The position numbers and the translations under genes were made by a program. From positions 128,884-192,883 of the forward strand of contig CBDAQV010000004.1 in assembly GCA_965199265.1 (NCBI GenBank): a stretch of DNA of 64,000 nt, in the 5' to 3' direction. The notes under the pieces are model-generated. The model ran no database searches and was not told the DNA's origin. It saw nothing but the letters and a program-made list of their open reading frames with translations. This document shows positions 10,155 through 62,839 of this stretch, one piece after another (the first letter of the stretch is position 1; the number at the start of each line of letters is the position of its first letter). Source of the stretch: Alphaproteobacteria bacterium. GTDB taxonomy: Bacteria > Pseudomonadota > Alphaproteobacteria > CALMVH01.

Positions 10155-12006
10155 TCACACCGCCAGCCCCTTCACGGCAAGGTCGCTCAACCGCCGGGCA
10201 AAGGCAGGGGCGTCCAGGACGGCTTCGCCTTCAGCGATGCGCGCTTGGTCCAGCAGCAGCCACGCCATCTCCTTGACCTCCTCGGGCGCGGCGGTCGCTT
10301 TCTCCGCCAGCCGCGCGATCAGGCGGTGTTTCGGGTTCACCTCCAGCACGCGCTTGACCAACGCGTCGAACTGCTTGTGCGCCTTCAGCAGGCGTTCGAG
10401 GTGCAGGTCGACGTCGCCCTCCCCCGAGACCAGGCAGACCGCGCTGTCCGTCAGGCGATGCGAGGCCTTCACGTCCTTGACATGCGCCGCCAGCGTTTCC
10501 TTCAGCAGGGCGAGCAGCGCTTCCATGCCCTCGGATGGTTTTGCCTCGGGCTCGGCCACGTCGTCGGCGGCCTTGATCTTGTCCAGGTCGTCGCCGCCGC
10601 GCGTCACCGAACGGAACTCCTTCTCCTTGTACGTGCCGACGGTCGAGGGCCAGAACTCGTCCACCGGGTCGGTCAGCAGCAGCACCTCGACGCCGCGCGC
10701 GCGGAAGCCCTCCAGCTGCGGGCTCTGCAGCAGCTTCTCGGCGTTGTCGCCGGCGATGGTGTAGATGGCGTCCTGGCCGTCCTTCATCCGCGACTCGTAG
10801 GCGGCAAGGCTGGTGTAGCCCTCCACCGCGGTCGAGCGGAAACGCACCAGCTTCAGCAACTCCTCCCGGCTTTCCACGTCCTCGTACAGGCCTTCCTTCA
10901 GCACCGCGCCAAAATTCTCCCAGAACTTGGCGTAGTCCTCCTCGTCGGCGGCGCGCTTGTTCAGTTCGGACAGGATGCGCTTGGTCACGCCTTGGCGGAT
11001 CTTAGTGATGATCGGGCTGGCCTGCAGCATCTCGCGGCTGATGTTCAGCGGCAGGTCCTCGCTGTCGATCACGCCGCGCATGAAGCGCAGCCACGCGGGG
11101 ATCAGCCCTTGCGCCGCCTCGGCGATAAAGACGCGGCGCACGTACAGCTTCACCTCGTGGTTGCGCTGCGGGTCGAACAGGTTGAATGGCTTGCTGTCGG
11201 GCACGAACAGCAGCGCCGAGTACTCGATCGTGCCCTCGGCGCGCCAGTGCAGCGTCGCCCACGGCGCGTCGTACGCCTTGGAGGTGTGCTGGTAGAATTC
11301 TTTATATTGCGCCTCGTCGATCTCGCTGCGCTGCCGCATCCACAGCGCGGAGGCGGCGTTCAGCTTTTCCTCCTCGCCTTCCAGCTCGATGGGGATGGCG
11401 ATGTGGTCGGAATACTTGCGCACGATCTGCTTCAGCCGCCCGGTCTCGAGGTAGTCGTCCTCCCCCTCGCGCAGGTGCAGGGTCAGCGACACGCCGCGCT
11501 CCGGCTTTTCCGCCGGGGCTACGGTGAACTCGCCACGTCCGTCCGACGACCACAGCCACGCCTCGCCGCTGCCCGCCTTGCGGCTGAGCACGGACACATG
11601 GTCGGCGACCATGTACGCGGGAGTAGAAGCCGACGCCGAACTGCCCGATCAGCGCCGAGTCCTTCTTGTCCTGAAGCGCCTGGGCAAAGGCGGCGGTGCC
11701 CGAGCGGGCGATGGTGCCGAGGTTGTCGATCAGCTCCTGCCGGTCCATGCCGATGCCATTATCGGCGATCGTCAGCGTCCGCGCGGCCTTGTCCACGGTG
11801 ATGCGGATCTTGAAATCGGTCCCGCCTTCGGCCAGCTGCCCTTGCGTCTGCGCCAGGTAGCGCAGCTTGTCGCACGCATCCGACGCGTTCGAGATCAACT
11901 CGCGCAGGAAGATCTCCTTCTCGCTGTACAGCGAGTGCGCGACGATATCGAGCAGGCGGCTGACTTCGGCCTGGAAGGAAAGTTTCTCTTCGGTTTCGAC
12001 GGTCAT
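10155..12006 (-). pseudogene. htpG: molecular chaperone HtpG (Hsp90), interrupted by +1 frameshift in a GGG/CCC run near 11619-11621 (likely sequencing error or pseudogene)
   Basis: The N-terminal ORF (11302..12006) carries the GHKL ATPase motifs ([30 protein letters not shown]). It then changes frame exactly at GVGFYS|AFMVADHV and continues in ORF 10155..11612. Deleting one C restores ...[16 protein letters not shown]. Confidence 0.85.
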
Positions 12007-12149
12007 TTTTGGTTTCCAGTCATGAGAACGTATAGCCGCATAGATGAGAGTACATCCGTCCTAACGCAAGATGGTCTGCGGGATGATTAGGTGTAGACGA
12101 TCGTTTGAGACTGCAAATTGGCTCTGTCATTCCGGCCGAAAGGCCGGAT

Positions 12150-12217
12150 CCATCCTTGGACAGTAGCGGCTGCACGTTCGTTCAGAGAAGGATACCGTGC
12201 CTTCGCACGGTATGACG
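12150..12217 (+). repeat. ~68-bp direct repeat, copy 1 (partner at 13061-13128), flanking a lower-GC two-ORF cassette
   Basis: CCATCCTTGGACAGTAGCGGCTGCACGTTCGTTCAGAGAAGGATACCGTGCCTTCGCACGGTATGACG versus CCATTCCTGGACAGTCGCGGCTACATGTTCTTTCAGAGATTAATACTGTGTCTTCGCACGGTATGACG. Copy 1 contains the hairpin CCGTGC-CTTC-GCACGG. Confidence 0.6.
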
Positions 12218-12286
12218 TCCCTGTATGAGTTCTCAAACGGTCACTAAATGATTGTACGTGAGGCACGAACAATATATTAAAGAAAA

Positions 12287-12493
12287 ATGAATTCCAAACG
12301 TATAGAAACGATCGACCAGTTGCATGCGCATGTCTCGGAACGGCTGAAGCCGTTTTCAGCGCCGGAGAAGACGGTAACCAGGCTTGTGGGACATCTTAGC
12401 TTCCTGCTCGACAAGGATGGACATTTTGATGCGGACTCCTCCTTGTTCGATTTCCGGGCAAGGTACGCGACAGCGCCCGCCGCATCGGCGTGA
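12287..12493 (+). CDS. hypothetical protein (68 aa; may be 5' part of a single gene with 12490..12999)
   Basis: It lies in the lower-GC region between the direct repeats. Its stop overlaps the GTG start of the next ORF (GTGA). Confidence 0.3.
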   Translation: MNSKRIETIDQLHAHVSERLKPFSAPEKTVTRLVGHLSFLLDKDGHFDADSSLFDFRARYATAPAASA

Positions 12494-17093: not shown

Positions 17094-18680
17094 TCACTCA
17101 TGCCGGTTGCGGCAATCGGGAAGCGGCGCGCCTTGCAGCAAGGCAAAAGAATGATTCGGACCTAGGGCGAGGCCGATCACCGGGCTGCCTGCCTCACAGG
17201 GAAGCGCCAGCAAAACCGCAAAACCCGTCTTTGCCTTGGTCGCGAACCGCTGGTGCAGTTCGCCACTGCCGTAGGAGGTGGACGTGGCGTCGAGGACATG
17301 TCCGTCCTGGAACAGCGCCACGGACATCACGCCCCTGTCCGCCCGGGTGTCGACGGCCCAGCCGGTTACCTTCAGCATGCCGTTGATCTGCCCGGCCGCT
17401 TCCACCGCGCCGGCAAGGCTGGCGGACGAGGTCAGACCCGCCTTCCTTGCCGCGGCTTCGAGTTGCGGCTGCGTCGCGACAGGACCGGCGCTGGCGATCG
17501 CCACGGCGATCTTGCGCGCGTTCTCCTGCCGGACAGCCGCAACGTGAAGTTTCCACCCCGCCGGCGCGGCCACTCCGACGAGGATCAGCAGGTAGGCACA
17601 TACCGCCGCCCGAAGCGGCAAAGCCTTGACCCGCTTCAAGGACGACTTGAGATAGCGGTACAGCCGGACATCCAGCCGCCCGACCGGGAGCGAAAGCAGG
17701 ATAGCCAGGCTTACCCCCAGCACCCACAAGACGGCGAAAACGGGACTGCGGACGTGCTGGTAGAGCGAGCGGATGATCGGCACGTGAAGCAGGTACAAGG
17801 CATAGCTGTAATCACCGAAACGCGCGGCCGACCTGCCAATCCGGTTGTTGCCGAACTCGGGCCTTGCCTGCGCGACGCCGACCGCGCCGGCGACCACCAG
17901 CGTCGCGCCTGCCCCGAACAGCCACCGGCCGCCTTCATTGTCCAGGGGGTAGAGTCCGTACAGCGGCCACGCCGCCGCTCCCGTCACCATCAGCAGCAAC
18001 GGCGGAAGCCGCAGGCGAAGCAGGGCGGGTATGAGCAGCCCGCCGGCCATCCCGACATTCTCGCACACCGTCAGGATGCGCTGGACGGGGTAGACAAGGC
18101 CGCCGGGGTCTGGGCGCAGGAGGCTGGAGCCCGCCAGCATCGCCAGCCATGCGAGTGCGATCCATGACAGGCGGCGCGCAAGGCCGCACAGGGAAATAAC
18201 GAACAGCGAAGTGTAGAAGACCACCTCGAACACGAGGGTCCACTCGACCTTGAGAGGGTAGCGCGCCTCCGCGCCGACGGGGGCCAGGGTCAATGCCGCG
18301 AAGTTGACGTAGATCTGCTGATCGAGGGCCAGGTTCAGCAGCCAGAACAGCGCGACCACGCCGAGGAAGCCCGGATATATGCGGAGCACGCGATGTGCAA
18401 GAAACGTGAACGGCTCCTGCACACTCAGCGCAGTGGCCATCAGGTAGCCGGAGATGGAAAAGAACAGTGAAACTCCGAACATGCCGAAACGGCCGTCGAA
18501 CCACGAAATGAAACTGCCGTTTTCCAGGATCAGCACGCCGTAGATCGATGCGTGGTATAGCACCACCATGATAGCCGCCAGCGCCCGCAGCCACTGGATC
18601 TGCAGGTTTCGCGGTTGGACACCCAGGCGCGAATGTGGAACCGCTGCGGACACATCGACGGTTTCCGGCGTTGCGATCAT
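17094..18680 (-). CDS. acyltransferase 3 (OafA/YrhL/ExoZ-like) family membrane O-acyltransferase with ~150-aa C-terminal extracytoplasmic domain, paralog 1 of 4
   Basis: It has the AT3 N-terminal motif NLQIQWLRA...YHA...FGVSLFFSISGYLMA and multiple TM helices. The C-terminal domain carries GWAVD, ALFQDG and a terminal Cys. The ATGA overlap with paralog 2 indicates coupling. Confidence 0.8.
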   Translation of the reverse strand: MIATPETVDVSAAVPHSRLGVQPRNLQIQWLRALAAIMVVLYHASIYGVLILENGSFISWFDGRFGMFGVSLFFSISGYLMATALSVQEPFTFLAHRVLRIYPGFLGVVALFWLLNLALDQQIYVNFAALTLAPVGAEARYPLKVEWTLVFEVVFYTSLFVISLCGLARRLSWIALAWLAMLAGSSLLRPDPGGLVYPVQRILTVCENVGMAGGLLIPALLRLRLPPLLLMVTGAAAWPLYGLYPLDNEGGRWLFGAGATLVVAGAVGVAQARPEFGNNRIGRSAARFGDYSYALYLLHVPIIRSLYQHVRSPVFAVLWVLGVSLAILLSLPVGRLDVRLYRYLKSSLKRVKALPLRAAVCAYLLILVGVAAPAGWKLHVAAVRQENARKIAVAIASAGPVATQPQLEAAARKAGLTSSASLAGAVEAAGQINGMLKVTGWAVDTRADRGVMSVALFQDGHVLDATSTSYGSGELHQRFATKAKTGFAVLLALPCEAGSPVIGLALGPNHSFALLQGAPLPDCRNRHE

Positions 18681-20242
18681 GGGCAGGCCACCGGTGCGTT
18701 ATGGTCGGAAAGCACGGCGTACCTCCGGTCAGCGGTCAGGGCGACGGCGACCAGGGCGCGCCCCGGCCGGCACGCCGCCGGCAATGTGAGCGCGAAGCCG
18801 CTGTCCAGCCGCGCCCGATGCTGCCGGCGAATATCGAAGCGCGGTACGGTCATGATCGTGCTGCCCAGTAAAGCCCCGTCCTGGAACAGCGCCACGAAGA
18901 CACGGCTCGCATGCTTGCCGCCGTCGATCGCCCAGCCCGACGCCCCAAGGCCCGAGGAGGTCCAGGCGACCGTGTCGAGGCTGCCATCAAGTTCCGGCGC
19001 GGGTCGCAAGCCTGCTCGGGCTGCCACCTCGTCGGCCTGCCATGGGGTTGCGATGCGGCCGTTGCCTGCAAGGCTTCTGGCCAGGTTGGCGGCGATAACG
19101 GTGTTCTCGCGGTCCAGAACGTCGTTGCGGTACTGGAAAAGAACAAGGCTCACGAAAGCGGCAACGTACAGTGTCACGCCGCCGCGGAGCACAAGGGGAG
19201 AGATCCTGCGGAGCAAGGTCTTGACCTGGCGGTAGGAGGCAAGGTCCAAGGTGCCGAGCAGGGCGCCCGTGGCCAGCGCGCAGGCGATGGCAGCGGGTAC
19301 CAGAACCCAGGCCGGTAACTCCGGAAGCTGCGTGTAGACCAGCCTGATCACCGGAACATGGCAAAGGTAGAGCGCGTAGCTGTAATCGCCGCAGCGCGCG
19401 AAGCACCGGCCGACCGCACCGCTGCCAAACTCGGGCCGCAGCGCCGACAGCCGTATCGCAGCGGCGACGATCATAGCGCCCCCGATCCCCGCAAGCCATT
19501 GGTAAAAAGCAGAGTCCGGAGTTGCCGCGGCCCAGGCCCACACGCCCAGCCCTGCAAGCGCGAGCGGCAGGGGGCGGCAAGCGCTTCTCGCAACGGCCGG
19601 AACCAGCAGCCCGCCCGCCATGGCGACGTTGTCGGAAACGGTCAGCTTGCCGATCAGGAAGCCGGGGTGGACAAGCCGGATCAGGTCGCAGGCGGCAAGC
19701 ACCATCAGCCATAGCGCGGCGATACGGCCGATCGACGGCGCCCATTTCAGCAAGCCGGCCGCGAAGACCGAAACGTAGAAGGTGACTTCGCATACCAGCG
19801 TCCATTCGACGCCGAGCGGGTAGGCCACGTTGCCCATCGGAACGAGGGTCAGCGCCTTGGGGTCGATCGGCAGCCATTGCCCGCACAGCGTCGCCTGAAC
19901 CCAGTAAGCCGCGACCATGAACAGGAAAGGGGGATAGATCCGGGCGATGCGGTGCGACAGGAAGGGAACGGGTTCCTGCACGCGGATTGCCGTCGCCATC
20001 AGGTAGCCGGAGATGGCGAAGAACAGGCACACGCCGAAATGTCCCCAGCTGCGCGGAAAGAGCGCTGTAACTGCTTCGCGGTGAAGGATGAGGCCTTGGT
20101 ACATTCCGGCGTGGTGCAGTAGCACCATCAGCGCCGCCGCCGCGCGCAGCCACTGGATCGGCAGGTTGCGCTGCCCGCCCGAACGGGAATGCGGGACCAC
20201 GTCGCAGACCGCCGCCCCGCTAAATGCCCGGGGTCCGCTCAC
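18677..20242 (-). CDS. acyltransferase 3 family protein, paralog 2 of 4
   Basis: It has the same architecture as paralog 1. The start is probably the GTG at 20242, which overlaps the paralog 3 stop (GTGA). The ORF-track start at 20335 would overlap the upstream gene by 97 nt. Confidence 0.7.
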   Translation of the reverse strand: MSGPRAFSGAAVCDVVPHSRSGGQRNLPIQWLRAAAALMVLLHHAGMYQGLILHREAVTALFPRSWGHFGVCLFFAISGYLMATAIRVQEPVPFLSHRIARIYPPFLFMVAAYWVQATLCGQWLPIDPKALTLVPMGNVAYPLGVEWTLVCEVTFYVSVFAAGLLKWAPSIGRIAALWLMVLAACDLIRLVHPGFLIGKLTVSDNVAMAGGLLVPAVARSACRPLPLALAGLGVWAWAAATPDSAFYQWLAGIGGAMIVAAAIRLSALRPEFGSGAVGRCFARCGDYSYALYLCHVPVIRLVYTQLPELPAWVLVPAAIACALATGALLGTLDLASYRQVKTLLRRISPLVLRGGVTLYVAAFVSLVLFQYRNDVLDRENTVIAANLARSLAGNGRIATPWQADEVAARAGLRPAPELDGSLDTVAWTSSGLGASGWAIDGGKHASRVFVALFQDGALLGSTIMTVPRFDIRRQHRARLDSGFALTLPAACRPGRALVAVALTADRRYAVLSDHNAPVACP

Positions 20243-21834
20243 CGGCACGCTGGCGGCGACCGAGGGCCGGGCAGGAGTGCGTACCGCTTGTCGGCGGTCA
20301 CGGCGAAAACGTCCACGTGGATGCCCGGAAGGCACGCGGCCTTGCCGGTGAACGCAAACCCGCCGTATCGGGCGGAATGATAGGCGCGCCGCACATCCGG
20401 CCGGCTTTCACCTGTGACAACCGCGGTCAGGAAGCGCCCTCCCTGATAGGCGACCACGGCAAAGGGCGAGGGGTGCCTGCGATCGTAATCGACGGACCAG
20501 CCGCTGAGCGTCAGAGTGGGGCCGTCCCACCGTTCCTGCTCGACATTGCCGAGCAACGTTTGCGAGCGGACGAAGCCGGCCTTTTCCAGAGCTGAAACCG
20601 AATCCGTCGCCGGGGGGCTTGCGTCGCGGATCAGGGCAACAGCCGCGTTCGTTTGCCGGGCGCGCACGGCGGCATCGAGCGGCAGCAGGCTTGCCGAAAC
20701 GGAAACGGACAGGAAAATGCAAAGGTACAGGAGGACGAACGCCCGCACGGCCCAGATGTTCGTGTTCGTGATCAGGTGCTTCGAGCGCCGGTACAGGGAC
20801 ACTTCCGCCTGTCCAGCCAATGCTGCAACCAGAAGGCTGGCGACGACCCCCAACGGCCACAGCACGGCCGGCGGCGCAAGGCCAGACAGGGTGTAGACGG
20901 CCAGGATAACCGGAACGTGCACGAGGTAGAGCGCATAGCTGTAATCGGCGGCCTTCGCGCAACCGCGGCCAAGGCGTGTATCGCCGAACTCTGGCCGGCG
21001 CGCCGATTGCGCGACGGCTCCCGCAAGGATCAGAGCCGATCCCGACCCCAGTAGCCAGCGCATGCCGTCAATCGTATGTACCCGGAGCAGACCCACGAGG
21101 CATAGGAAGAACCCGGCGGCGGCCAGGGGAAGCGCCGGCGGCTTGCGCTCGATCAGCGAAGGTATCAGCATTCCCGCGGCAAGCGGCATCGCCGCAGGAT
21201 GCCGCAGGATCCATCCCAGGTAGATCCGGGCGGTTTCGCCATCTGGATGAAGGCAAGTCTGGCGGGCAAGGATCACAAGCCAGAGCCCTGCGATCCACGG
21301 CAGCCACCCTGAAAGCCGCAGCAAGCCCGCGAAGAAGAGGCTCACATAGAACGTGACCTCGAACATCAACGACCATTCGACGCCCAGCGGACCCCCTGTC
21401 TGACCGACCGGGGTCAGGAGGAAACTGCGCAGCTGGGGAATATCCACCGCTCCGGCAGGCCAGCTGATCGCGTAGCAAAGCGCATACACCAGCCACAGCA
21501 GCGGGTAGATCCGGACAATGCGATGCGCCAGGAACGGGACAGGCGCCTGTACCCGGATCGCCGTTGCCATCAGGTACCCGGAGACGGCGAAGAACAGGCA
21601 TACCCCGAACATGCCCGCGCTGTCGCCGAACAGTTTCAGGAACGCTCTGTCGTGCAGGCGGTCACCGGCGAAGTACGAAGCGTGATACAGCAGGACGCAC
21701 AGCGCGGCCGTGGCGCGCAGCCACTGGATCTGGAGGTTCTTGGGCGTGCCGCCCCGCTCCGCCCGGCGCTCCGGGTGCGGGACCGCGCTTTCCACAGGGT
21801 TTTCGGCATCGACGGCGAAGGGGATGGCGCTCAC
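20239..21834 (-). CDS. acyltransferase 3 family protein, paralog 3 of 4
   Basis: KNLQIQWLRATAAL...FGVCLFFAVSGYLMATAIRVQ is followed by a C-terminal domain with GWSVD...AYQGG...terminal PPACR. Confidence 0.8.
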   Translation of the reverse strand: MSAIPFAVDAENPVESAVPHPERRAERGGTPKNLQIQWLRATAALCVLLYHASYFAGDRLHDRAFLKLFGDSAGMFGVCLFFAVSGYLMATAIRVQAPVPFLAHRIVRIYPLLWLVYALCYAISWPAGAVDIPQLRSFLLTPVGQTGGPLGVEWSLMFEVTFYVSLFFAGLLRLSGWLPWIAGLWLVILARQTCLHPDGETARIYLGWILRHPAAMPLAAGMLIPSLIERKPPALPLAAAGFFLCLVGLLRVHTIDGMRWLLGSGSALILAGAVAQSARRPEFGDTRLGRGCAKAADYSYALYLVHVPVILAVYTLSGLAPPAVLWPLGVVASLLVAALAGQAEVSLYRRSKHLITNTNIWAVRAFVLLYLCIFLSVSVSASLLPLDAAVRARQTNAAVALIRDASPPATDSVSALEKAGFVRSQTLLGNVEQERWDGPTLTLSGWSVDYDRRHPSPFAVVAYQGGRFLTAVVTGESRPDVRRAYHSARYGGFAFTGKAACLPGIHVDVFAVTADKRYALLPGPRSPPACR

Positions 21835-21890
21835 CCGGCGGCAGGTAGCACGGCTTTCCTCCGGCGATCAATACGCGCCACCCTCGTTGC

Positions 21891-23483: not shown

Positions 23484-23645
23484 CGTCCGGCAGGTAGCAC
23501 GCGGCCCCGCAAGCGATCAACAAGCTGGCCCCGCTACGACCGTCCTTCCGGCCGCAAGGCCGCAATCTATGCTGGCGTTGAAGCGACACCATAGGCAAGG
23601 AACCGAAAAAACCGATTGTGGCACTGCCGCGTCAAGGGCTTGCAG

Positions 23646-24893: not shown

Positions 24894-25340
24894 CTACGCA
24901 TTCCGCAGCCGCGCGATCGCGGCGCGGGCCAGTTCGTCGCAACGTTCGTTTTCGGGGTGGCCGGCGTGGCCCTTGACCCATAGCCACTCGACGAGGTGGG
25001 GCGCGGCGGCGGCGTCGAGGCGCTGCCACAAATCCTGGTTCTTGACCGGCGCCTTCGCCGCGGTCTTCCAGCCGCGCGCCTTCCAGCCCTCGATCCACTC
25101 GGACACGCCCTGCTGGACATATTTGCTGTCGGTGGTCAGGCGCACGCGGCAGGGTTTCCTCAGCGCTTCCAGCCCGGCGATCGCCGCCATCAGCTCCATG
25201 CGGTTGTTGGTGGTCTGGCTGTCGCCGCCGCTCAGTTCCTTTTCGCTGTCGCCGAAGCGCAGGATCGCGCCCCAGCCGCCCGGCCCCGGGTTGCCGCTGC
25301 ACGCGCCGTCCGTCCAGATCTCGACCGGTGGAAGCGTCAC
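24894..25340 (-). CDS. rnhA: ribonuclease HI
   Basis: [29 protein letters not shown] and ...[18 protein letters not shown] are canonical RNase H motifs. The GTG start overlaps the thrB stop (GTGA). Confidence 0.9.
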
Positions 25341-26301
25341 GCGAACAGGCCATATTCGGCGGGGGATTTCACCCCCTGGTGGAACTTCAGCCGCGACCAG
25401 TACTCCAACGGATCGTGCGGCTTCACGACCGCGCCCGCGGCGGGGTTCAGCCAGTCGAACAAGCGGGTCACGACGATCCGGACGGCCGCGCCGCGCGCCA
25501 GGACCGGCAGGGCGTCGCGTTCCTCCCCGCTAAGCGGGCGGCCCGTCTCGTACCCCGCCACCAGAGCGCGCGCCTTGGTCGAGTTGAACTGCCGGTCGGG
25601 CTCGAAGCACCACGCGTTGATCGCCAGCGCGACGTCGTAGGCAAGCAGGTCGGTGCAGGCGAAGTAGAAGTCGATGATGCCGCTGAACCCGTTGCCCTGG
25701 AAGAAGACATTGTCGGGGAATGGATCGGCGTGAATGACGCCGCGCGGCAGCGTCTCCGGCCAGTTGCCGGCCAGGAAGCCCAGCTCGGCGTCGAGGGCGG
25801 CCGCAAGGCCCGGGGCAACTTCGTCGGCGCGGGCGGATGTCGCCGCCGCCAGGCGGCGCCAGGCGGCGAAGGACAAACTGTTCTCTCTCGAAAGCCCGCT
25901 ATCCGCCGCCGCGTGGTGGAACCGCGCCAGCGCCCCGCCGAACGAGACGCAGTGCGCGCGGGCCGGGCGGCGCACCGAGACGCCGTTGAGAAAGGTCAGC
26001 AGCGTCGCCTCGCGTCCTGCTACCCGGCGCAGCGCGCGGCCGTCGCGCCCTGGAACGGGCAGAGGGCATTCGACTCCCTTGCCCGCCACATGCCGCATCA
26101 GGTCGAGGAAGAAGGGCAGGTCGCGGTCGGCGACGTTGCGCTCGAACAGGGTCAGGATGAACGGTCCCGCCTCTGTCATCAGCAGGAAATTGGAGTTGGA
26201 AACCCCTCGACGATGCCCTTGCACGACAGGAGGTCGCCGACGTCGTACTGCGCGACAAAACCCGACAGGTCATCGTCGGAAAGATCGGTATAAACGGCCA
26301 T
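25337..26301 (-). pseudogene. thrB: homoserine kinase type II (ThrB2, phosphotransferase family), interrupted by a 1-nt deletion in a C4/G4 run at ~26204-26207 (likely sequencing error)
   Basis: The ORF 25337..26224 starts at ...GVSNSNFLL. The authentic N-terminus [33 protein letters not shown] is encoded upstream in another frame from the ATG at 26301. Inserting one G restores the reading frame. Confidence 0.8.
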
Positions 26302-31735: not shown

Positions 31736-31783
31736 GACGGGGCGGCTCTGGAAAGCGAAAACGCAAACCGCTACAACCACCGT

Positions 31784-40427: not shown

Positions 40428-40803
40428 GCAAGCTCCGGTAGGAAAACCAGGCCAGCGCAAGCCAGCCTGCAATAAAACAAACACCGCCGACAGGGGTTAC
40501 GGCGCCCAGCCATTCCAGCCCGGTCGCTGCCAGCAGGTAGAGGCTGCCGGAAAACAGCACGATCCCGGCCGAGAAGCACCAGCTCGACAGGCGCGGCCCG
40601 CCCAGCGCCGACACCGTCAGCAGGCCGAGGGCGTGGGCGATCTGGTACTCGGCCGCCGTTTTCAGCCAACCTATGCGCTCGGCGTCAGCGACCCTGTCCA
40701 GCCCGTGCGCGGCGAACGCGCCGCCCATGACGGCCAACGCCCCGTTCAGGGCGGCGAACACGACGAAGTACGATCCGGCTCCGACCATGCTGACGCTCGG
40801 CAT
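40417..40803 (-). CDS. DUF423 domain-containing small membrane protein
   Basis: 128 aa with 4 predicted TM helices. It is the C-terminal part of the over-extended ORF 40417..41586 and starts at MPSVSMVGAG. Confidence 0.6.
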   Translation of the reverse strand: MPSVSMVGAGSYFVVFAALNGALAVMGGAFAAHGLDRVADAERIGWLKTAAEYQIAHALGLLTVSALGGPRLSSWCFSAGIVLFSGSLYLLAATGLEWLGAVTPVGGVCFIAGWLALAWFSYRSLHEH

Positions 40804-40842
40804 GCTTCTCCTTATCCCTTCCCGTCTCGGGGCGGAAGGGTT

Positions 40843-43120: not shown

Positions 43121-43388
43121 ATGCAGTTTCCGGAACGCACACTCGAGGTTGATCTCAGTACCCGGCCGTCAGGCGGGGCTTTGCGGGCATCGCACGTCGC
43201 GGTTGATTTTCTTAGCGCAGTATCGGTGTTTGGCACCATCGGTGTAGGTGCCGCGACGGTTTACGACGCTGTCGCCAATCGGACTCGCTCGAAAAATTTG
43301 TCGGCGGCGTTTTCATGGCAAGCGGCATTGCCGGAGCGGTCGGCTACATCAAGTACGCGCGCAATCCGCTGGACAGCCCGCGGGTCTA
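43121..43388 (+). pseudogene. small two-TM glycine-zipper membrane protein interrupted by a 1-nt deletion in an A5 run (~43299-43303)
   Basis: Frame 1 encodes ...VDFLSAVSVFGTIGVGAATVYDAVANRTRSK. Frame -1 continues FVGGVFMASGIAGAVGYIKYARNPLDSPRV*. Adding one A joins them into an 89-aa protein. Confidence 0.3.
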
Positions 43389-43451
43389 AATTCGTGCATC
43401 GGAGAGCGTAAGTAGACGAGTCCCTGGAGCAGGCTGAAACGCGCGCGTAGA

Positions 43452-46888: not shown

Positions 46889-47005
46889 TCACCGGGAACG
46901 GGCAGGTTCCAACCTAGGATCATTGCCCGGAACGCCGATCAACAGCAAAAAAGTTCTTGTTATGTTCTTTATTCTACAGTATGATTTTAGTGCTCTGGAG
47001 GTAGA

Positions 47006-47854: not shown

Positions 47855-47856
47855 AA

Positions 47857-48429
47857 ATGAAGTACATTCTCGTAGTGATGAGCCTATTCTTTCTCACCAC
47901 GGCAATTACGCATGCCGAAGAAACTCGTGATCTTTTTAAATACTATAATGTTAAGGAAATTTTTCGTGGTGGAAAACATGCTGTTGTGCTTCGAACAAAA
48001 CAAGATCATTTGATGCGCACGGCCCTGAGGGGGGGGTACGAGCTCCATAGAGTAGAATTCGCTGGCCACTACATTGTTCTCACGATTGGATGTGGTGCTG
48101 CCTGTTTCGGCGGCGCGGTGGTCGATGCCATCACCGGAAACGTGACGTGGTTCCCTTTCTTGGAAATGTCAGTGACCGATTATTTCGAGCCGGTTTCGTA
48201 CTGCCGCAACAGTCGCCTGATCCGCTTCGTGGGTGAAACCGCGCGCGACCCGCGCAACGCCGCTTATTTTTATGAATTGCGCAACGACCAGTTTCGTCTT
48301 GTGAAAACCGTCCTCCTGCCGCCCCCCAGGGACGGACTCATCGGCGATCCTCCCAAATGGCAGGACATGTACAGCAGCAATCCCGCCTATTGCACTCCCG
48401 TCAGCGAAACGCCGCGGAACTACCTGTGA
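47857..48429 (+). CDS. hypothetical periplasmic protein with signal peptide (MKYILVVMSLFFLTTAITHA); candidate cognate immunity protein; low GC
   Basis: It lies immediately downstream of, and co-directional with, the transglycosylase-like gene. It has the same low GC and a cleavable signal peptide. Confidence 0.5.
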   Translation: MKYILVVMSLFFLTTAITHAEETRDLFKYYNVKEIFRGGKHAVVLRTKQDHLMRTALRGGYELHRVEFAGHYIVLTIGCGAACFGGAVVDAITGNVTWFPFLEMSVTDYFEPVSYCRNSRLIRFVGETARDPRNAAYFYELRNDQFRLVKTVLLPPPRDGLIGDPPKWQDMYSSNPAYCTPVSETPRNYL

Positions 48430-52131: not shown

Positions 52132-55100
52132 TCAGCTATGCCAAGCGGCGAGCACGGCCGCGTTGAGAGTCGCGTCACCCGGCATGGCAGCGCCCGTTGC
52201 CTGCGGATTGAAGCCGGGATGCGCGGCGGAAAAGCCTGCCATTGCGTTCACCAGCGTGTTCACCGCTGAATCAAGCTTCAGCCCGCTGCCGTCCACGATC
52301 TTCAATACCTGAGAGTAAGCATTGCCGTACCAGTTCTGGATCGTGACCTGGTCCCTGGTGCCCAGTACGTCGATCACCAGATTGTTGCCGACCTTTGCCA
52401 GCCATAGCCCGGTATCCGCAATGCCCGACGCGAAGTCCACCTGCCCAGCCGCCGCGTTCGCCGGAGCCACGCCGTTCACGATCGTGACCGCACCGTCGCC
52501 CCGGCCAAAGTCGTAGGTGTCCGACCCGCCGTTGCCTGTCAGAACGCTCGTTCCGCCCGCTTGTGCGTGTCCGCGTAATGTGTCGTCGTACTGTGTTCCC
52601 GTGACGCTGGTGTAACCGCCCAGGACCTGGCCGGAGACCGAGCTGGTTCCGGCGGAAAGGTCTACGGAGGCTCCTGCCGTCTGGCTGCTTTCGTCGAGGG
52701 TAAAGCTTACCGTCTGGACGTTTCCGGTGACCAGCGAAGCCTTGTTGACGCCGCTGAGCACCACGGTCTGGCCATTGTCGGATTTGATTGTCGTGCCGTC
52801 GATATTGAAGTTGCCGATCAGCGCCGTGGTCGGGGTGGCGCCGTAGGGAAGGATTTGCGCGCTTGCGATGGTCAGCCCGTTCATGAACCATATGACCGCT
52901 GGCGAGTCCGGGTTCGGCGTGTTCGCGGCCAGCAGGATATCGGCGTCTCCATCACCGTTGAAATCGCCGACCCCCGCGATGTGGTACCCCGGCAGTACCT
53001 GCGCGCCGTAGGCGCCGCCCAGCGCCGCTGCGCCGATCACCGTGCCGGTGCCGCTCATCTCCCACAATACCGGGGTGGCGGACCCGTTGTCCCACAGGAT
53101 GTCGCTGATGCCGTCGCCATTGAAGTCGCCGATCCACGCCTTGGTGGACGTCGCTCCGTAGGGCAGCACGGACGCGCCTGCCACGGCAAGGCCGTTCATG
53201 TACCAGATCACGGCGGGCGAGTTCGGGTTCGGGACGTTCGCCGCCCATAGGATGTCGCTTTTTCCATCGCCGTTGAAGTCACCGACGCCTGCGATGTGAT
53301 ACCCGGGCAGGACCGGCATCCCCGGCCCGCCGCCGATCCAACCGGCGGCGATGACCTGGTTGTTTTTCATCTCCCACAGGAACGGGGCCGCGCCGCCCTC
53401 GTCCCACAGAATGTCCGTGGTGCCGTCGCCGTCGAAGTCGCCGGCCCATACCTTGCTGCTGGCGCTTCCGTAGGGCAGGACCTCGCCTGAAACCAGCGTG
53501 CCGTTTCCAATGTTCCAGATCACGTCCGGCGCGAAAGGACTGGCATTGTTGGCGGTCAGCAACAGGTCGCTGGTTCCGTCTCCATTAAAATCGCCCACCG
53601 CGGCGACGTGGTAGCCGGGCAGAACGTCCGACCCGAAACTTCCGCCCAGCGCCGCCGCGCCCTTGACCGCCGCGCCGTTCAGTTCCCAGGTCACGGGCGT
53701 GAGCGAGCCGTAGTTCCACACAAGGTCGCTGATGTCGTAGTTCGAGGTCGCGTAGGACGTCGCGCCCATCAGCTGTACGGCGTCGCCGCTGCTTCCCGCG
53801 TGGAAATTGGTTATCGTATTGGTCAGGCCGGCCACCGTGAAACGGAATTGGTTCTGCCCGGCCGACCCGGTCAGGGTGCCCGATGCGCCGGGCAGGACCA
53901 GGTGAATGGGCACGACCACGTGAACGGGCACGCCGGTCGGCGCAGGCGCGGGAGCGCTGGAGCCTGTGCTTCCCGAAGTCGTTCCCTGGGAAGGGGGCGT
54001 GGCGGCCGGCGCATTGGGCAGGACTTCGATGATGACCGGATCAGCCGACAAGCCGACCGAAACCGTGGCGGCATCGGTCAGCGACTGGATGGCAGACGTC
54101 CCTTGCATCGGATCGTAGACATTGATGTTCTGGAAAGCGGAGCCGAAAGTAACGGTTACATTCGAAGTCGGCGGCGTTGTGTCCGCGGTGCCGTTGGAAA
54201 CGGCCGCATTGTCATTCCAGATGACGATATCGAAAGCCCCGTTCGATTTCTCCAGCAGCGTCGAAGTGGCGGTGCTTGGCAGGCCGGCCAGGCTGTAGTC
54301 CAGCGTCCCCGGGTTCGTCACAGTGCCGCTGTCGGCCAGGATGGCGAACAGGTCGTGCAAGTCGTTCGCGGCCGCCTTGGGCGTTCCGTCGGCGTTGAAC
54401 AGGCCGAAATTGCTCTCCTGATCGGCAGGCGAGTCCTCGTCATCCATCAGTTCATAAAGGAAAGTTTTGGCAGCCCCGTCCTTGTAGCCGTCCAGAACGG
54501 CATTGAGATCGATGATGCCCTGGGTTTTCGGGTCTGTTACGCCCCAAGTCGAACTGCCGTAACCCGAGCTCGAAATGCCCGTCTCGGTGATATAGACAGG
54601 CTTTCCGGGAGCGCTGGCCTTGGCCGCGGCGATGCCGGACAGCATGTTGTTCTGCAACTGCTGGCCGACCCCGGCGTAAACGTGCCAGTTAGAAGCGTCT
54701 ACGTACTGGCCGACACTGGCCCCGGAACTGGCGTTGGCGGTAGATGCCGCCACGATTTTCACCCCGGCCAGACTGGGATCGGCTTCGACCGCGCTTTGCA
54801 GATTTTGATCGTCGAGGGCGCCCCAGGCAATGTTTCCGGTCGAAGACTCTCCGTTCAGCGTCAGCTTGTTGACATTGTATTCGTTCTCGCCTTCGATGCT
54901 TTCTATACTGCCCGGCGCGGCAGCTTCGAGAGTATTGTCGACCTGCAGATCCTTGGCGGCGTCGACCGTCGGACCATTCTGGAGCAGATCGAACTTAACG
55001 CCGGTTTGAGCGAGTGCGACGTATTCTGAAAGAGCCCAGCTGAAAGGGTCGCCATCGCGTATGTTCTTCACGCCGAGGTAGGCGACTGCGTTTTCGACGT

Positions 55101-55251
55101 TCTGGGCGCTTGAGTAGCCCGTTGTGTTGGACCATGTCAGATGGGCGTTTACCCCAACGGAATTGATAAAGCTGTTTACGCTTGCAGCCTGTACGGGCCC
55201 GGGTGAAGGTGCGCCTGTGGCCAACGCATCGTTTTGAATGCTAGCGACCAT
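52132..55251 (-). CDS. large secreted multidomain protein: N-terminal clan GH-A glycoside-hydrolase-like domain, >=4 FG-GAP/VCBS-type repeats (GDFNGDG[TKI]SD), RTX-like Ca-binding motif and T1SS-substrate-type C-terminal domain
   Basis: KPVYITETGISS is a clan GH-A nucleophile motif. GDFNGDGTSDLLL / GDFDGDGTTDILW / GDFNGDGKSDILW / GDFNGDGISDILW / GDFNGDGDADILL are the repeats. GNGGSDTYDFGRGDG is followed by ...QVTIQNWYGNAYSQVLKIV, the haemolysin-type Ca-binding related domain. The gene has an AT-rich upstream region. Confidence 0.8.
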   Translation of the reverse strand: MVASIQNDALATGAPSPGPVQAASVNSFINSVGVNAHLTWSNTTGYSSAQNVENAVAYLGVKNIRDGDPFSWALSEYVALAQTGVKFDLLQNGPTVDAAKDLQVDNTLEAAAPGSIESIEGENEYNVNKLTLNGESSTGNIAWGALDDQNLQSAVEADPSLAGVKIVAASTANASSGASVGQYVDASNWHVYAGVGQQLQNNMLSGIAAAKASAPGKPVYITETGISSSGYGSSTWGVTDPKTQGIIDLNAVLDGYKDGAAKTFLYELMDDEDSPADQESNFGLFNADGTPKAAANDLHDLFAILADSGTVTNPGTLDYSLAGLPSTATSTLLEKSNGAFDIVIWNDNAAVSNGTADTTPPTSNVTVTFGSAFQNINVYDPMQGTSAIQSLTDAATVSVGLSADPVIIEVLPNAPAATPPSQGTTSGSTGSSAPAPAPTGVPVHVVVPIHLVLPGASGTLTGSAGQNQFRFTVAGLTNTITNFHAGSSGDAVQLMGATSYATSNYDISDLVWNYGSLTPVTWELNGAAVKGAAALGGSFGSDVLPGYHVAAVGDFNGDGTSDLLLTANNASPFAPDVIWNIGNGTLVSGEVLPYGSASSKVWAGDFDGDGTTDILWDEGGAAPFLWEMKNNQVIAAGWIGGGPGMPVLPGYHIAGVGDFNGDGKSDILWAANVPNPNSPAVIWYMNGLAVAGASVLPYGATSTKAWIGDFNGDGISDILWDNGSATPVLWEMSGTGTVIGAAALGGAYGAQVLPGYHIAGVGDFNGDGDADILLAANTPNPDSPAVIWFMNGLTIASAQILPYGATPTTALIGNFNIDGTTIKSDNGQTVVLSGVNKASLVTGNVQTVSFTLDESSQTAGASVDLSAGTSSVSGQVLGGYTSVTGTQYDDTLRGHAQAGGTSVLTGNGGSDTYDFGRGDGAVTIVNGVAPANAAAGQVDFASGIADTGLWLAKVGNNLVIDVLGTRDQVTIQNWYGNAYSQVLKIVDGSGLKLDSAVNTLVNAMAGFSAAHPGFNPQATGAAMPGDATLNAAVLAAWHS

Positions 55252-55680
55252 ATCAGTTTCCTCGATCAGCCATCACTTACAATCTAACAAAAATTTTCCA
55301 GAATATCCATAAAAAACAATTCGCTAAAGTTCATATTATTTTTGGTTAATTATTAACCTAGTCCGTTGATACGGCGGTTCCTGTTCCAGGGGATCGCGGT
55401 ATCGCGTCCGCGATGCACTGGGGAACGCCCGGTTGCAAGGCAAGCGCAAGCGCCGGGATCAACGACAGCCGCACGGTCAAGGCGACGGCTACTGTGCCTT
55501 GCCGAACGGGAAACAGCCGATGCCCGCGCAATCCTCATGACGGGCAACCATTTGCCTTGAGTAGCAGGCACGCCTCGGGCTACAGCTACGTCTCACCCCG
55601 GCAGAGGACCGCCTATCTTGTGGATGAGACACCGCTACCTGCATAGGCTGTATGCGAACAGCCTTTTCAGGAAGACCGTC

Positions 55681-56379
55681 ATGAACCTGTCCACCGGCAT
55701 GGAGTTGTCCATGCTGGGAGGTCATAAGGAGCGCGAAGTGGTCGAGCGCCTGCGCAGGGCGCGGCGCACGCGCGAAAGCCTGCTGAGCGGCAACGAGGCG
55801 TTCATGGTGTACTCCATGGCGCGCGCCCAGAGTGCGCTGGCGGGGGAAATGGCGGAGGTCGGCGTGTACCAGGGGTGCTCGGCCCGGCTGATCAGCGAGG
55901 CGAGCGGCGGCCGGTCCCTGCATCTGTTCGACACGTTCAACGGCTTGCCCGATCCCGACAGCGAGGAGCAAGGGCATCTTCGCTGCAACCAGTACCGTTC
56001 CTCGCTGGATTCGGTACGCGAGTATCTTGCGGACCGCCCGGACATCACGCTGCACCCGGGTTTCTTCCCCGCGACCGCCACCGGCATGGAGGACCGTCGC
56101 TTCTGTTTCGTCCACCTCGACGTCGACCTGAAGTCCAGCACGCGCGCCTGCCTCGACTTTTTTTATCCAAGGCTGGTTCCCGGCGGCATGATCATGACGC
56201 ACGACTACTCCTACCTCGACGGCGTGCGCGAGGCGTTCGGGGAGTTCACCGCCGGCTTGCCGGGCGGCAGGGGCCAGCTGATCGAACTGCCGACCTCGCA
56301 GGCGATCCTGGTTCGGGGCGTGGAAGTGGAGAGTTCTTCCCCTCTGGCGTCGCGCGAAGCGGTCAGGGAACCAGCCTAG
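55681..56379 (+). CDS. TylF/MycF-family class I SAM-dependent O-methyltransferase
   Basis: GEMAEVGVYQGCSARLI...HLFDTFNGLP...MIMTHDY is the macrocin-O-methyltransferase family pattern. The start is uncertain (TTG 55618, ATG 55624 or ATG 55681). Confidence 0.6.
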   Translation: MNLSTGMELSMLGGHKEREVVERLRRARRTRESLLSGNEAFMVYSMARAQSALAGEMAEVGVYQGCSARLISEASGGRSLHLFDTFNGLPDPDSEEQGHLRCNQYRSSLDSVREYLADRPDITLHPGFFPATATGMEDRRFCFVHLDVDLKSSTRACLDFFYPRLVPGGMIMTHDYSYLDGVREAFGEFTAGLPGGRGQLIELPTSQAILVRGVEVESSSPLASREAVREPA

Positions 56380-56387
56380 ACTGCTTT

Positions 56388-57572
56388 CTAGGCCCGGGGC
56401 CTTGCGCCGGGCTTGTCGCCGCCGCGTTGCTCCTGCTGGACCAGATCTGCAATGGGCGATCTGTGGCAACCGGGAACCACCGCGCCCACCGCGTCCAGCA
56501 TGCGGGTCACCCGCGGATACGAAATACGGAAATACGCGTCATTGGCCACCGCCTGGAGCGCCGAAGGCTCTGGTGCAATGGCTTTCGCGTGCAACGACTT
56601 TAGAACGTCGCGTTTCCGCGAAGGGTCGCTCAGAGCTTCCTGCACCATCGCACGCTCCCAGGCGACAAGCAAAGCGCCGTGCTGCTGCGACCCCGGAGGT
56701 GCATGGCGTAACAGCGTTTCCGATGCGGCGGCGCGTGCGGGATTAGACATGTCCAAGGCGGCGTCGGTCAGGCCCGCAAGGCCGCGATCGACGAGCCTTG
56801 CCGTATGAGGCCCCTCGTAAGCGGCGAGCACATCGATGGCGTGTCGAACGGCTGCGCCGGGTGCAAGTTCGACGGGCGCCAGGAAAGCGTCCGCCGCCAC
56901 GCTGCCGATCTGCCGGCGAAGAGCGTCAGGCCGACCGTTCACAAGAGTGCCCAGGATCGCCATCGACGCCGCCAGCCTGGCCGGCGCGTCGATCTGATCC
57001 GCAGAGTGCTCGAGCGAATGCAAGGCCGACCGGCTTGCGAGCGTGGCACTTATGCCGAACTCGGCTGCCCGTCGGCTGTGCAGCCGCGCCTTTGCGCTGC
57101 TGCGCTCCGCTTTCAACAAGGCCATCTCGGTCACCTCGCCCGAAGAGCGACCGGCTGCCTCGAGATGCGCTTGCACCTGCCCGGCGCTTACATGCTCGGC
57201 CGATATCTGCGCTTCGCGCAGGGCATGCCAGTCCAGGGCAATGCCCACGCGAGCCGTAAGGACTCCGGCGGCGGTCAGCCCGGCATCGGGCGACTTAACG
57301 ATCTGTTCCTCGGCGCCAACGGCTCGGACAGCGATCGTCAGGGCGCGGGACTCCGTTTCGGGCGCATAACAGTACTCGTTCATCGCCGCGACGACCCGGC
57401 GTAATGAATGAAGGCGGGTGCCTGCGCCATAGGCCGTGTCCGCGAGCCGCATCTCTGCAACGAGCTGTTCCGCTTCATCCACGCGATCGGCTTGCGCGAC
57501 GACATCTTCGCGCAGCATGCCTTGGCAAATCCTACCAAGCCGTTCCGCCAGTTTTTCATCCATTTCAGACAT
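56388..57572 (-). CDS. hypothetical Ala-rich protein (394 aa)
   Basis: The start is at MSEMDEKLAERLGRICQ (ATG 57572). The longer ORF-track extension overlaps the GAF gene and is an artifact. No family was recognised. Confidence 0.4.
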   Translation of the reverse strand: MSEMDEKLAERLGRICQGMLREDVVAQADRVDEAEQLVAEMRLADTAYGAGTRLHSLRRVVAAMNEYCYAPETESRALTIAVRAVGAEEQIVKSPDAGLTAAGVLTARVGIALDWHALREAQISAEHVSAGQVQAHLEAAGRSSGEVTEMALLKAERSSAKARLHSRRAAEFGISATLASRSALHSLEHSADQIDAPARLAASMAILGTLVNGRPDALRRQIGSVAADAFLAPVELAPGAAVRHAIDVLAAYEGPHTARLVDRGLAGLTDAALDMSNPARAAASETLLRHAPPGSQQHGALLVAWERAMVQEALSDPSRKRDVLKSLHAKAIAPEPSALQAVANDAYFRISYPRVTRMLDAVGAVVPGCHRSPIADLVQQEQRGGDKPGARPRA

Positions 57573-57637
57573 GAAGCCTCCGACCTTCACCGGAAGTAAG
57601 TGGCAGAAAAAGTCCTGAAAGTAAATACTTCGTAAAC

Positions 57638-58165
57638 TCAGAACCGTGCAGGCTCCAGTTGAGCGGTAATGATTTCGGCTGAAATCGCCGCGAAATCCTT
57701 CAGCATGCGACGCTCGCGGGGGCTGAGCTCGCTGCGCGGCATGTGATCCAGGAGGCAGAACGTACCCAGCTTGTGCCCGGAGGGCCCCAGCAACGGCGCA
57801 CCCGCGTAAAAGCGTATGTGCGGCGCGGCTGTGACCAGCGGATTGTCGGAGAAGCGATCGTCCTCGGTCGCGTTCGGAATGAAAAGGATGTCGTCCTGCA
57901 GCAGCGCATAGGTGCAGAACGAGGTCGAGCGCGGCATCTCGGTGATCGCGGGGCCATGGATGGCCAGCATCACCTGGCGTTTCGCCTCGATCAGCGACAG
58001 CAGGGCCACCGGTACGTTGAACACCGAGCTTGCCAGGTCCGTCAGGATGCGCAGGCTTTTCTGCTCGGGCATATCCAGCACGCGGCAACTGTGCAGCGCG
58101 TTCATACGCTCCGCCTCGTTCTCGGGCAAAGGAAACTTGCGTGTGTCGGCGTCGGTTGAATCCAT
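57638..58165 (-). CDS. GAF domain-containing protein (stand-alone)
   Basis: ERMNALHSCRVLDMPEQKSLRILTDLASSVFNVPVALLSLIEAKRQVMLAIHG...RFYAGAPL is the GAF fold signature. The start is at the internal ATG at 58165. Confidence 0.6.
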   Translation of the reverse strand: MDSTDADTRKFPLPENEAERMNALHSCRVLDMPEQKSLRILTDLASSVFNVPVALLSLIEAKRQVMLAIHGPAITEMPRSTSFCTYALLQDDILFIPNATEDDRFSDNPLVTAAPHIRFYAGAPLLGPSGHKLGTFCLLDHMPRSELSPRERRMLKDFAAISAEIITAQLEPARF

Positions 58166-58447
58166 GGCACAAACTAGGCCTGTGCTAAACAAAAGTACAA
58201 GGGCACGCTGGCCACCGACTACGGCAATGCTGTGGCTGGTGCAAAGTCTGTCGATGACGAATGGAAGCTGCGCAGCGGCAGCAAGACCTCCTTGCGCGCA
58301 TACGCCCCACTCTGGGCGATGTTCCCCTGCCGAAAGCTTCTGCATCAACGCAGCCAACGCGAACTGCATAGCGGCGGGGAAGCAAGGTGTCGCGGATGGT
58401 TGTTCGACGTAAATGCGCTCTCGACGCGCGTCATTGCTTCGAAAGCG

Positions 58448-59209: not shown

Positions 59210-59232
59210 CCTGACGTCACTCTGAACTCAAA

Positions 59233-60390: not shown

Positions 60391-60699
60391 ATGGCCAACT
60401 ATAACCGCTCGTCGCTGATCTTGTCGGTGAACCGAGCCCTATGGGGCAAAGTCACGGCAAATCTGCGTCAGGTCACGGCTACCGTCGCGCACGGCGCGCT
60501 TTATGTACAGGCGGTATTCGATGCCGAGCCGTCTAAAGCCGACACGCGGATCGTCGATGAGGTGGGCGCGAAGGCGGTATCGGATTTTCCGGAACTGAAA
60601 TTGATCGTGGAAGCGCTCGGAAAAGCCTCGGCGGAACCGCTGGAGGTCGGCCAAGGGTGGAGTCAGGTGTTCCGGCGCCAGGAAGATCGGTTATCCTGA
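60391..60699 (+). CDS. hypothetical protein (102 aa)
   Basis: This ORF runs from the ATG at 60391 with moderate GC. No family was recognised. It is convergent with parD and terminates at the palindrome CCTGAACC/GGTTCAGG. Confidence 0.35.
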   Translation: MANYNRSSLILSVNRALWGKVTANLRQVTATVAHGALYVQAVFDAEPSKADTRIVDEVGAKAVSDFPELKLIVEALGKASAEPLEVGQGWSQVFRRQEDRLS

Positions 60700-60727
60700 A
60701 CCAGGTTCAGGATGACGAAATTACAAG

Positions 60728-60967
60728 CTATACCCGCTTTCGGAACTCTTCGCCGGTCCGGCGCAGCCAATCCCTGGCCGAGGCGCTCTCCTCCGAGCCG
60801 TCATCGATCATGTGTTTCAGCGCATGCAAGGCCGCGTTGCGCTGCTCGTCCGCCAAAAGCGTGCTGCGCAACGCCTCGACCACGATCTCCTCCGCACTGC
60901 CGTAGCGGCCGCTTGCCAGCTTGCGGGCGATCAGCGTTTCCAGTTCGGGGGGCAGGCTCAATTCCAT
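60728..60967 (-). CDS. parD: type II toxin-antitoxin system ParD-family antitoxin (ribbon-helix-helix), apparently orphan
   Basis: MELSLPPELETLIARKLASGRYGSAEEIVVEALRS matches the ParD/COG3609 N-terminal signature. No ParE-like ORF is found downstream. Confidence 0.6.
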   Translation of the reverse strand: MELSLPPELETLIARKLASGRYGSAEEIVVEALRSTLLADEQRNAALHALKHMIDDGSEESASARDWLRRTGEEFRKRV

Positions 60968-61041
60968 TCCGGTCTCCAGCGTGAAGCCCGGTATAGGACG
61001 AGGGTCGTTTAAATCGCGTTATCGCCGCGTGAATTCGACGG

Positions 61042-62839
61042 TCAGACCCGGCGCGCGAACAGTCTTTCGATGTCGACGAGGTCGAGAGCGATGTAGGTCG
61101 GTCGGCCATGGTTGCACTGCCCCGAGCCGGGCGTTCCCTCCATCTGGCGCAGCAGCCCGTTCATCTCGTCGATGCTGAGCCGCCGCCCGGCGCGCACCGA
61201 GCCATGGCAGGCAAGGGTCGCCAGCACGGAGTCCAGCCGTTCGCGCAGCATTTCGGGGGTGCCGCATTCGCAGGCCTGGTCGGCAAGGTCGCGCACCAGC
61301 GCCATCACGTCTGCCCCTGCCAGCGGCGCGGGAATGCCGCGCACCGCGACCGCGCCGGGTCCGAAGCGCTCGATGTCGAGGCCGAGCTTGAGCAGTTCTT
61401 CCTCCAGCGGCAGCAGCGCGTCGGCACTGCGCGCGTCGAGCGGGACTATTTCAGGGATCAGCATGCCCTGCATGGGAACGCCCCCGGCGGCATAGCCCGC
61501 TTTCATCCGCTCGTAGACCAGGCGTTCATGCGCGGCATGCTGGTCGATCAGCACGATTCCCTCCTCGGTCTGCGCGACAATATAGGTCTCGTGCAACTGC
61601 GCCCGCGCGGCACCCAAGGGGAATCGGGCTGGCAGAGACGGTTCGGACTCCGGCTCCGTCGCCGCGCTCGCGGCAGGTTCCATCGTCTCGCGGAAACTCG
61701 TTTGCCCTTCGGCGAAGTAAGTGGCCGGGTTAGGCCGCCACGACGGCAGGCGCGACGGCGATCCCAGCGGCTGGCCCGTCCGGAAAGCGGCGAGGGTGCG
61801 CTCGCCAAGGCTGGACGAGCTGCGGGTCGATGTCTCGTTCAGCGCCGCTCTCAACGCGCCTACGATCAGGCCGCGCACGCCGCCGGCATCGCGGAAGCGC
61901 ACTTCGGCCTTGGCGGGGTGGACGTTCACGTCGACGAGGTCGGGCGGCAGCTCGAGGAACAGTGCCAGCATCGGATGCCGCCCGTGCATCAGCAGGTCGC
62001 CATACCCGGCGCGCACCGCGCCCAGCAGCAGCCGGTCGCGCACGGGCCGCCCGTTGACGTACAGCCATTGCCACGCCGCCGTCGGCCGGTGCAGCGTCGG
62101 CAGCCCGGCATAACCATCGAGGCCGGTCTCGCCGCGCCGCGCGTCCACCTTCACGGCGTTGTCGAGAAAATCGCTGCCGTAGATAGCGGCGATGCGCGGC
62201 AGCCGCGCGTCTAGAAGGTCGCCCGCTTCGGCGGCCAGCGTCATCGCCGGCCTGCCGTCGTCGACCAGGGCGAAGGCAATGCGCGGATGCGCCGCGGCCA
62301 GCCGCTCCACGGCCTCGCGCACATGACCGGCCTCCGTGCGCGGCTGCTTCAGGAATTTCAAGCGCGCCGGCGTCGCCTGGAACAGCTCGCGCACCTCGAC
62401 GCGCGTGCCTTGGCGCAGCGCCGCCGGTTTTTGCGGCAGCTTGCGCCCGGCGTTCACCTCGAGCAGCCACGAATCCGCCGCGCCGGACAGCCGGCTTTCG
62501 ATGGTAAGCCGCGCGACCGAGCCGATCGAAGGCAACGCTTCCCCCCCGGAAGCCGAAGGTCAGGATGGTTTCCAGATCGCCGTCCGGCAGCTTGGACGTG
62601 GCGTGGCGCTCGACGGCAAGGTCTAGGTCCTCCGGACCCATGCCGCGCCCGTTATCGGTTACCGAGATCAGTCGCTGGCCGCCATCCTCGATCGCGATCT
62701 CGATCCGGCTTGCGCCCGCGTCGATTGCGTTCTCCACAAGTTCCTTGACCGCAGCAGCGGGGCGTTCGATCACCTCGCCGGCGGCGATGCGGTTGACCAA
62801 CGTTTCCGGCAGGCGGCGGATGGCGTGTACGATGGTCAT
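61042..62839 (-). pseudogene. mutL: DNA mismatch repair protein MutL, interrupted by +1 frameshift in a G7/C7 run at ~62541-62547 (sequencing error or genuine inactivation)
   Basis: The N-terminal ORF (to 62839) carries the GHKL motifs ([30 protein letters not shown]) and ends ...TFGFRG. The continuation [17 protein letters not shown]... is in ORF 61042..62535. Removing one G restores [13 protein letters not shown]. Confidence 0.85.

Follow-up and report, generated by a model that had tools for sequence, protein, structure and literature searches.

The window analyzed here, a stretch of 64,000 nucleotides from contig CBDAQV010000004.1 of an Alphaproteobacteria bacterium assembly (GCA_965199265.1; positions 128,884 to 192,883 of the forward strand), carries three conserved minus-strand genes, htpG, thrB and mutL, each of which is split into two overlapping open reading frames (ORFs) in different frames. 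The G+C content of the window is 64.5% and its genes have very high third-position G+C (GC3), so that reading frames are easily followed. A prediction made from the sequence letters (hereafter the original prediction) held that four conserved genes were each split by a single-base indel. This was borne out for htpG, thrB and mutL, which upon repair gave full-length NCBIfam matches, but not for the fourth case, a small ORF that found no homologues. Coordinates are collected in Table 1.

Three split genes and their repaired products

The two htpG ORFs, 11302..12006 (-) and 10155..11612 (-), overlap at a break with the coding-strand sequence ttc tac tcc cgc gta cat gg. Removal of one C of the tccc gives a protein of 616 residues that matches the HtpG profile NF003555 in one stretch with a score of 745 bits (cut-off 371), residues 7-609 aligning with profile positions 1-613 of 614. 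When the HtpG of a relative (P0122) was compared with the window by tblastn, its residues 6-131 matched positions 11994-11620 in frame -2 with 87% identity and its residues 132-616 matched positions 11618-10164 in frame -3 with 85% identity. The closest relative (L003/L005; ERZ25067493 ctg172018_7x_l, 1.04 Mb, also present as CBDAQZ010000004.1) gave the same pair of frames, with the break at 11618/11620, and its own gene reads TCC GCC TAC ATG (S-A-Y-M) in frame at this site. The extra C/G had thus been placed exactly by the original prediction, as had the junction after GVGFYS, although the residues that follow are AY rather than AF. The 3′ fragment of htpG is on record as a protein of 485 residues (P0125) that is 100% identical.

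In mutL the coding strand at the break reads ttc c ggggggg aa gcg, where CGG GGG GAA, encoding the R-G-E of GFRGEAL, would be expected. As given, the gene is cut short at residue 99, within the ATPase domain. Removal of one G gives a protein of 598 residues that matches profile NF000953 in one stretch over positions 2-611 of 611 (836 bits, cut-off 693), and when the MutL of the closest relative (L003) is compared with the window by tblastn, the match passes from frame -1 to frame -2 at 62534-62544. The extra G/C in a 7-mer, and the full-length MutL restored by its removal, were as originally predicted, again with exact coordinates. Relatives have CGG GGC GAG or CGC GGC GAG in frame at this site, and the G6 tract is lineage-specific. 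The 3′ fragment of mutL is also on record, as a protein of 497 residues (P0001) that is 100% identical.

A second broken mutL was found in a related metagenome assembly (L004; ERZ25067468 contig_37), the MutL of which is 68-69% identical to that of the window. Its frameshift lies at a different site (9900-9915 of that sequence), where gag aaA cgc stands in place of the expected gag aac gcc, an AA to AAA change, and the resulting gene call (P0012, 528 residues) lacks the N-terminal ATPase domain. Among the 120 best MutL matches 116 have lengths of 590-654 residues, and P0001 and P0012 are the shortest, both lacking the two N-terminal ATPase domains.

The thrB gene differs in the sign of its lesion. 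The coding strand at the break reads gag ggg ttt cca act cc, and addition of one base at the plus-strand C4 run gives a protein of 321 residues that matches the thrB_alt profile TIGR00938 in one stretch over its whole length (positions 1-307 of 307; 382 bits, cut-off 256). The prediction that thrB lacks one base in this run was therefore right, its coordinates being off by one base. Which base was lost is ambiguous, as gaggggtttcc could have come from a G5 run reduced to G4 or from loss of the C in a GGC glycine codon, and hence the homopolymer context at thrB is not certain. At 25337-25340 the stop codon of thrB overlaps the rnhA start codon (RNase H, 24894..25340), an arrangement that suggests translational coupling. 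An early thrB frameshift, if real, could also lower rnhA expression.

Chance cannot account for the three confirmed splits: every repaired protein aligns in one stretch over the whole profile, junction included. Each of the three genes has one lesion and no second lesion, with equivalog profiles matched at full length, and GC3 is kept at 0.84-0.91 in the displaced 3′ parts. Relative-rate tests in which MutL and HtpG were set against four orthologues, two of them ingroup and two outgroup, showed no acceleration (chi-square 0.02-2.1), the window sequences having 24-39 unique changes versus 23-40 in the relatives. Long-standing pseudogenes are rejected by this result; any real inactivation would have been very recent, and in all three genes at once. 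Neither insertion elements nor multi-lesion pseudogenes were seen in the window.

Table 1 Positions of the split genes, their indel sites and the small ORF within the window
Feature	Coordinates	Strand	Remarks
htpG 5′ part, residues 1-131 (N-terminal GHKL ATPase region up to GVGFYS)	11620..12006	-	Out of frame thereafter to 11302
htpG indel site	11619..11621	-	Plus-strand GGG (coding ccc) where CC is expected; +1 insertion
htpG 3′ part, residues 132-616 and stop codon, other frame	10155..11618	-	ORF and tblastn
thrB (homoserine kinase, thrB_alt type)	25337..26301	-	Split into ORFs 26179..26301 and 25337..26224; TIGR00938
thrB indel site	26203..26206	-	Plus-strand CCCC (coding gggg); one base missing
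Small ORF, unverified, within an intergenic gap of 460 bp	43121..43411	+	A5 run at 43292-43296
mutL	61042..62839	-	5′ ORF 61730..62839 (true coding about 62541-62839) and 3′ ORF 61042..62535; NF000953, tblastn
mutL indel site	62541..62547	-	Plus-strand C7 (coding G7) where G6 is expected; +1 insertion

The small ORF and the frameshift count

The fourth case had been described as a small glycine-zipper ORF restored to a conserved protein by one added A. That addition gives a predicted two-helix product of 89 residues, which had no NCBIfam match and no match among 5.8 billion proteins. An exhaustive phmmer search of 1.84 billion representatives with the 96-residue ORF as given returned one spurious match, to a repeat protein of 2306 residues, that falls largely in the segment held by the original prediction to be wrongly framed. 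With no homologues spanning the junction in any of these searches, the claim of a conserved protein fails. The A5 run is present, but about 7 bases from the reported 43299-43303. The sole support for a frameshift here is the more coding-like GC3 of the shifted frame: the last 30 codons have a GC3 of 0.77 in that frame versus 0.61 as given, the 5′ part being low (0.58). This ORF may or may not be a gene.

Further frameshifts were sought with a GC3 frame plot and coding-like stop-to-stop ORFs, by inspection of all gaps between the main coding ORFs, by tblastn of relatives' ORFs against the window and by Pfam searches with ten unassigned ORFs. No further split conserved gene was found in the 64-kb window by these means, and the additional errors anticipated by the original prediction were thus not seen within it. 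Apparent frame switches at 2800, 37430, 40800-41580 and 49700 were rejected as frameshifts, these being normal gene boundaries or genes on the opposite strand (such as thiolase/3-hydroxyacyl-CoA dehydrogenase, response regulator/histidine kinase, and a glycosyltransferase with an opposite-strand DUF423-like gene). A search of the window for structured RNAs that could expose indels gave only one intact tRNA-Gln.

The 64 kb thus contain three certain single-base indels and at most four, a density of 4.7-6.3 per 100 kb, and about three of 55 genes are affected. The signs are mixed (+1 in htpG and mutL, -1 in thrB), as had been claimed. The accompanying claim that all lesions lie at homopolymers is too sweeping: it fits the G6 to G7 change of mutL, but in htpG CC became CCC, and in thrB GGC may have become GG. 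Neither is the signature the "classic" one of homopolymer error, since longer runs within ORFs are in frame: G8 at 48029-48036, C7 at 2385 and 22083, T7 at 56158 and several 6-mers.

Consensus errors and rival explanations

Judging from the sequence record, the three frameshifts, together with the putative fourth, are most probably sparse run-length errors of plus or minus one base in the consensus. They would stem from a metagenome-derived assembly that was left unpolished and was probably built from long reads, probably at low coverage. The organism itself would then have working, unbroken htpG, thrB and mutL genes, the split ORFs being artefacts of base calling, consensus building or polishing. 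This reading is supported by the single lesion per gene, the full-length repaired products and the lack of other decay, and it coincides with the sequencing or assembly indel error favored by the original prediction. The presence of both indel signs is as expected for run-length misestimates. Systematic failure at long homopolymers is the classic defect of 454 and nanopore R9 sequencing; the pattern in the window looks more like sparse plus or minus one run-length errors in a low-coverage consensus than like such failure.

We infer the platform and coverage of the source from the lack of annotation and from the naming style of related records. The 3′ fragments of mutL and htpG, each the sole member of its protein cluster, come from one unannotated 258,195-bp NCBI/ENA contig. 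The nearest relatives, at 68-85% amino-acid identity, are in the two ENA metagenome assemblies named above, and we take 'contig_37' and 'ctg172018_7x_l' to be naming styles of long-read metagenome assemblers, with '7x' presumably suggesting coverage. A same-species sequence for comparison of run lengths was not found by exact-protein look-ups with GcvT, GcvH, an antitoxin and the recorded MutL fragment. In a scan of species-representative genomes the MutL identity of relatives reached no more than 75%, and protein searches with repaired MutL and HtpG returned the window's own fragments at 100%, followed by relatives at 75-85%.

Long-read-only genomes and metagenome-assembled genomes are known to retain errors of this kind. 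Nanopore consensus sequences keep homopolymer indels that split gene calls, and bins with less than about 40-fold coverage need short-read polishing (PMC9262707). For a mock community, nanopore R10.4 metagenome assemblies had about 4 indels in every 100 kb, and frameshifts were more numerous in soil data (PMC13087279); the density in the window is of the same order as the mock-community value. The likeness to the residual indels of long-read-only (nanopore, PacBio) or 454/Ion Torrent assemblies, as scored by IDEEL-type tests, extends to the splitting of otherwise perfect conserved genes by changes of one base at runs (in thrB a possible run), to the occurrence of both signs, to the comparable density of about 5 per 100 kb and to the defect of the same kind, at another site, in the mutL of the related assembly. 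The window differs in that the runs hit are short (2, 4-5 and 6 bases) whereas the longest are in frame, which is atypical of older chemistries with their systematic failure at long homopolymers.

Several observations weigh against consensus errors. If the assembly were built from Illumina reads at high coverage, three indel errors would be an unusual number for 64 kb. The errors are not at the worst homopolymers, the longest runs within ORFs (G8, the two C7 and T7) being in frame. All three lesions are in dispensable or conditionally dispensable genes, mutL among them, a coincidence that fits a mutator. Finally, the closest relative has htpG and mutL on one contig, with the gene order around both in common with the window, and the approximately 20 genes common to the two are single tblastn segments, only the htpG and mutL of the window being split. 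The relative, the name of which suggests 7x, has no splits among these genes, and hence a low-coverage long-read assembly need not yield such errors.

Mismatch-repair mutants typically gain single-base indels in homopolymeric tracts (PMC8875331), and the indels of thrB and htpG could have followed a real G6 to G7 slip in mutL in a genuine mismatch-repair-deficient mutator. We consider this unlikely. A like degree of doubt attaches to the fuller scenario of an uncultured alphaproteobacterium in which slippage of the G6 in the GFRGEAL codons to G7 would have given a natural and potentially reversible mutator, with thrB and htpG as the first collateral damage. The truncation of mutL within its ATPase domain would fit a mutator, as would the lineage-specific G6 tract, a plausible slippage hotspot, and the fact that the three genes can each be lost under some conditions. 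However, the indels do not track run length: a 2-mer, a 4/5-mer or no run at all, and a 6-mer were hit and the G8, C7 and T7 runs left intact. The rates of protein evolution in MutL and HtpG are not accelerated, and three broken genes in about 55 would imply hundreds of fresh pseudogenes genome-wide, whereas the other genes of the window, including gyrB, dnaN, recF and gcvTHP, are intact and the coupled arrangement of thrB and rnhA is preserved. The different mutL frameshift in the related assembly is also more simply a property of the data type than the mark of two independent mutators.

The natural mutL/mutS hypermutators of chronic Pseudomonas aeruginosa infections likewise combine an interrupted mutL with single-base indels in other genes, but in the window the indels do not scale with run length, acceleration is absent and the implied genome-wide pseudogene load is implausible for a genome of this kind. 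The resemblance to the phase-variable poly-G/C contingency loci of Neisseria and Campylobacter, in which changes of tract length toggle the frame, is confined to the coding poly-G tract of mutL. That tract has 6-7 bases and is not conserved, htpG and thrB have no real tract, and none of the genes concerned encodes a surface or restriction-system protein. A real mutL lesion would mean that an environmental mutator had been caught in a metagenome, which would be modestly interesting but would establish no new principle.

Real but unrelated lesions, either independent recent pseudogenes or minority or strain alleles adopted by the consensus of a mixed population, are likewise improbable. Mixtures of strains are common in metagenome bins, and the source is probably such a bin; some truncated proteins in such assemblies may be genuine pseudogenes according to the authors of one study (PMC13087279). 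Three simultaneous, very recent losses of conserved genes by single lesions within 64 kb would nevertheless be improbable in a genome of free-living type with high coding density.

Programmed ribosomal frameshifting or transcriptional slippage, by which full-length proteins would still be made, has the G7 run of mutL as its only support and is effectively ruled out by the lack of conservation of the sites, the relatives being in frame with different codons at htpG and mutL; moreover, two sites are very short runs, the required shifts are opposite in direction and we know of no recoding signal at the split sites.

If consensus errors are the cause, about 5% of the genes in the assembly may be falsely split. 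Gene counts and pseudogene calls made from it would then be skewed, metabolic reconstruction would be led to a false auxotrophy for threonine, and a mutator lifestyle deduced from the record would be unreliable. As biology the finding offers little that is new, and it serves mainly as a data-quality flag: the record needs polishing or frameshift correction before use.

Other features of the window

Four tandem paralogues of about 520-540 residues, acyltransferase-3 (PF01757-type) membrane proteins with a common C-terminal extension, are encoded on the minus strand at 17097-23516. The closest relative has two tandem copies (L005 1-2848), with which they share 37-56% identity.

An intact MmeI-family restriction/methyltransferase of 968 residues with MmeI_N, helicase-spacer, Mtase and TRD domains is encoded on the plus strand at 31736-34639, and downstream of it lies a low-G+C ORFan of 253 residues, with a stretch of lower G+C at 34642-35400. 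Together these two genes may be a small defence island, and the enzyme would imply motif-specific adenine methylation in this genome.

Between dnaN and a GAF-like gene (57641-58447) the window has a block, 52135-57640, that is an insertion relative to L003. It encodes a protein of 1046 residues with FG-GAP repeats and a domain related to the haemolysin-type calcium-binding domain, a putative methyltransferase and an ORFan of 416 residues.

Two low-GC3 ORFans of 287 and 196 residues lie on the plus strand at 46991-48426, separating gyrB from the conserved gene that comes next. The larger is weakly similar, below the threshold, to a phage tail lysozyme domain, and the smaller contains the longest run of the window, the in-frame G8.

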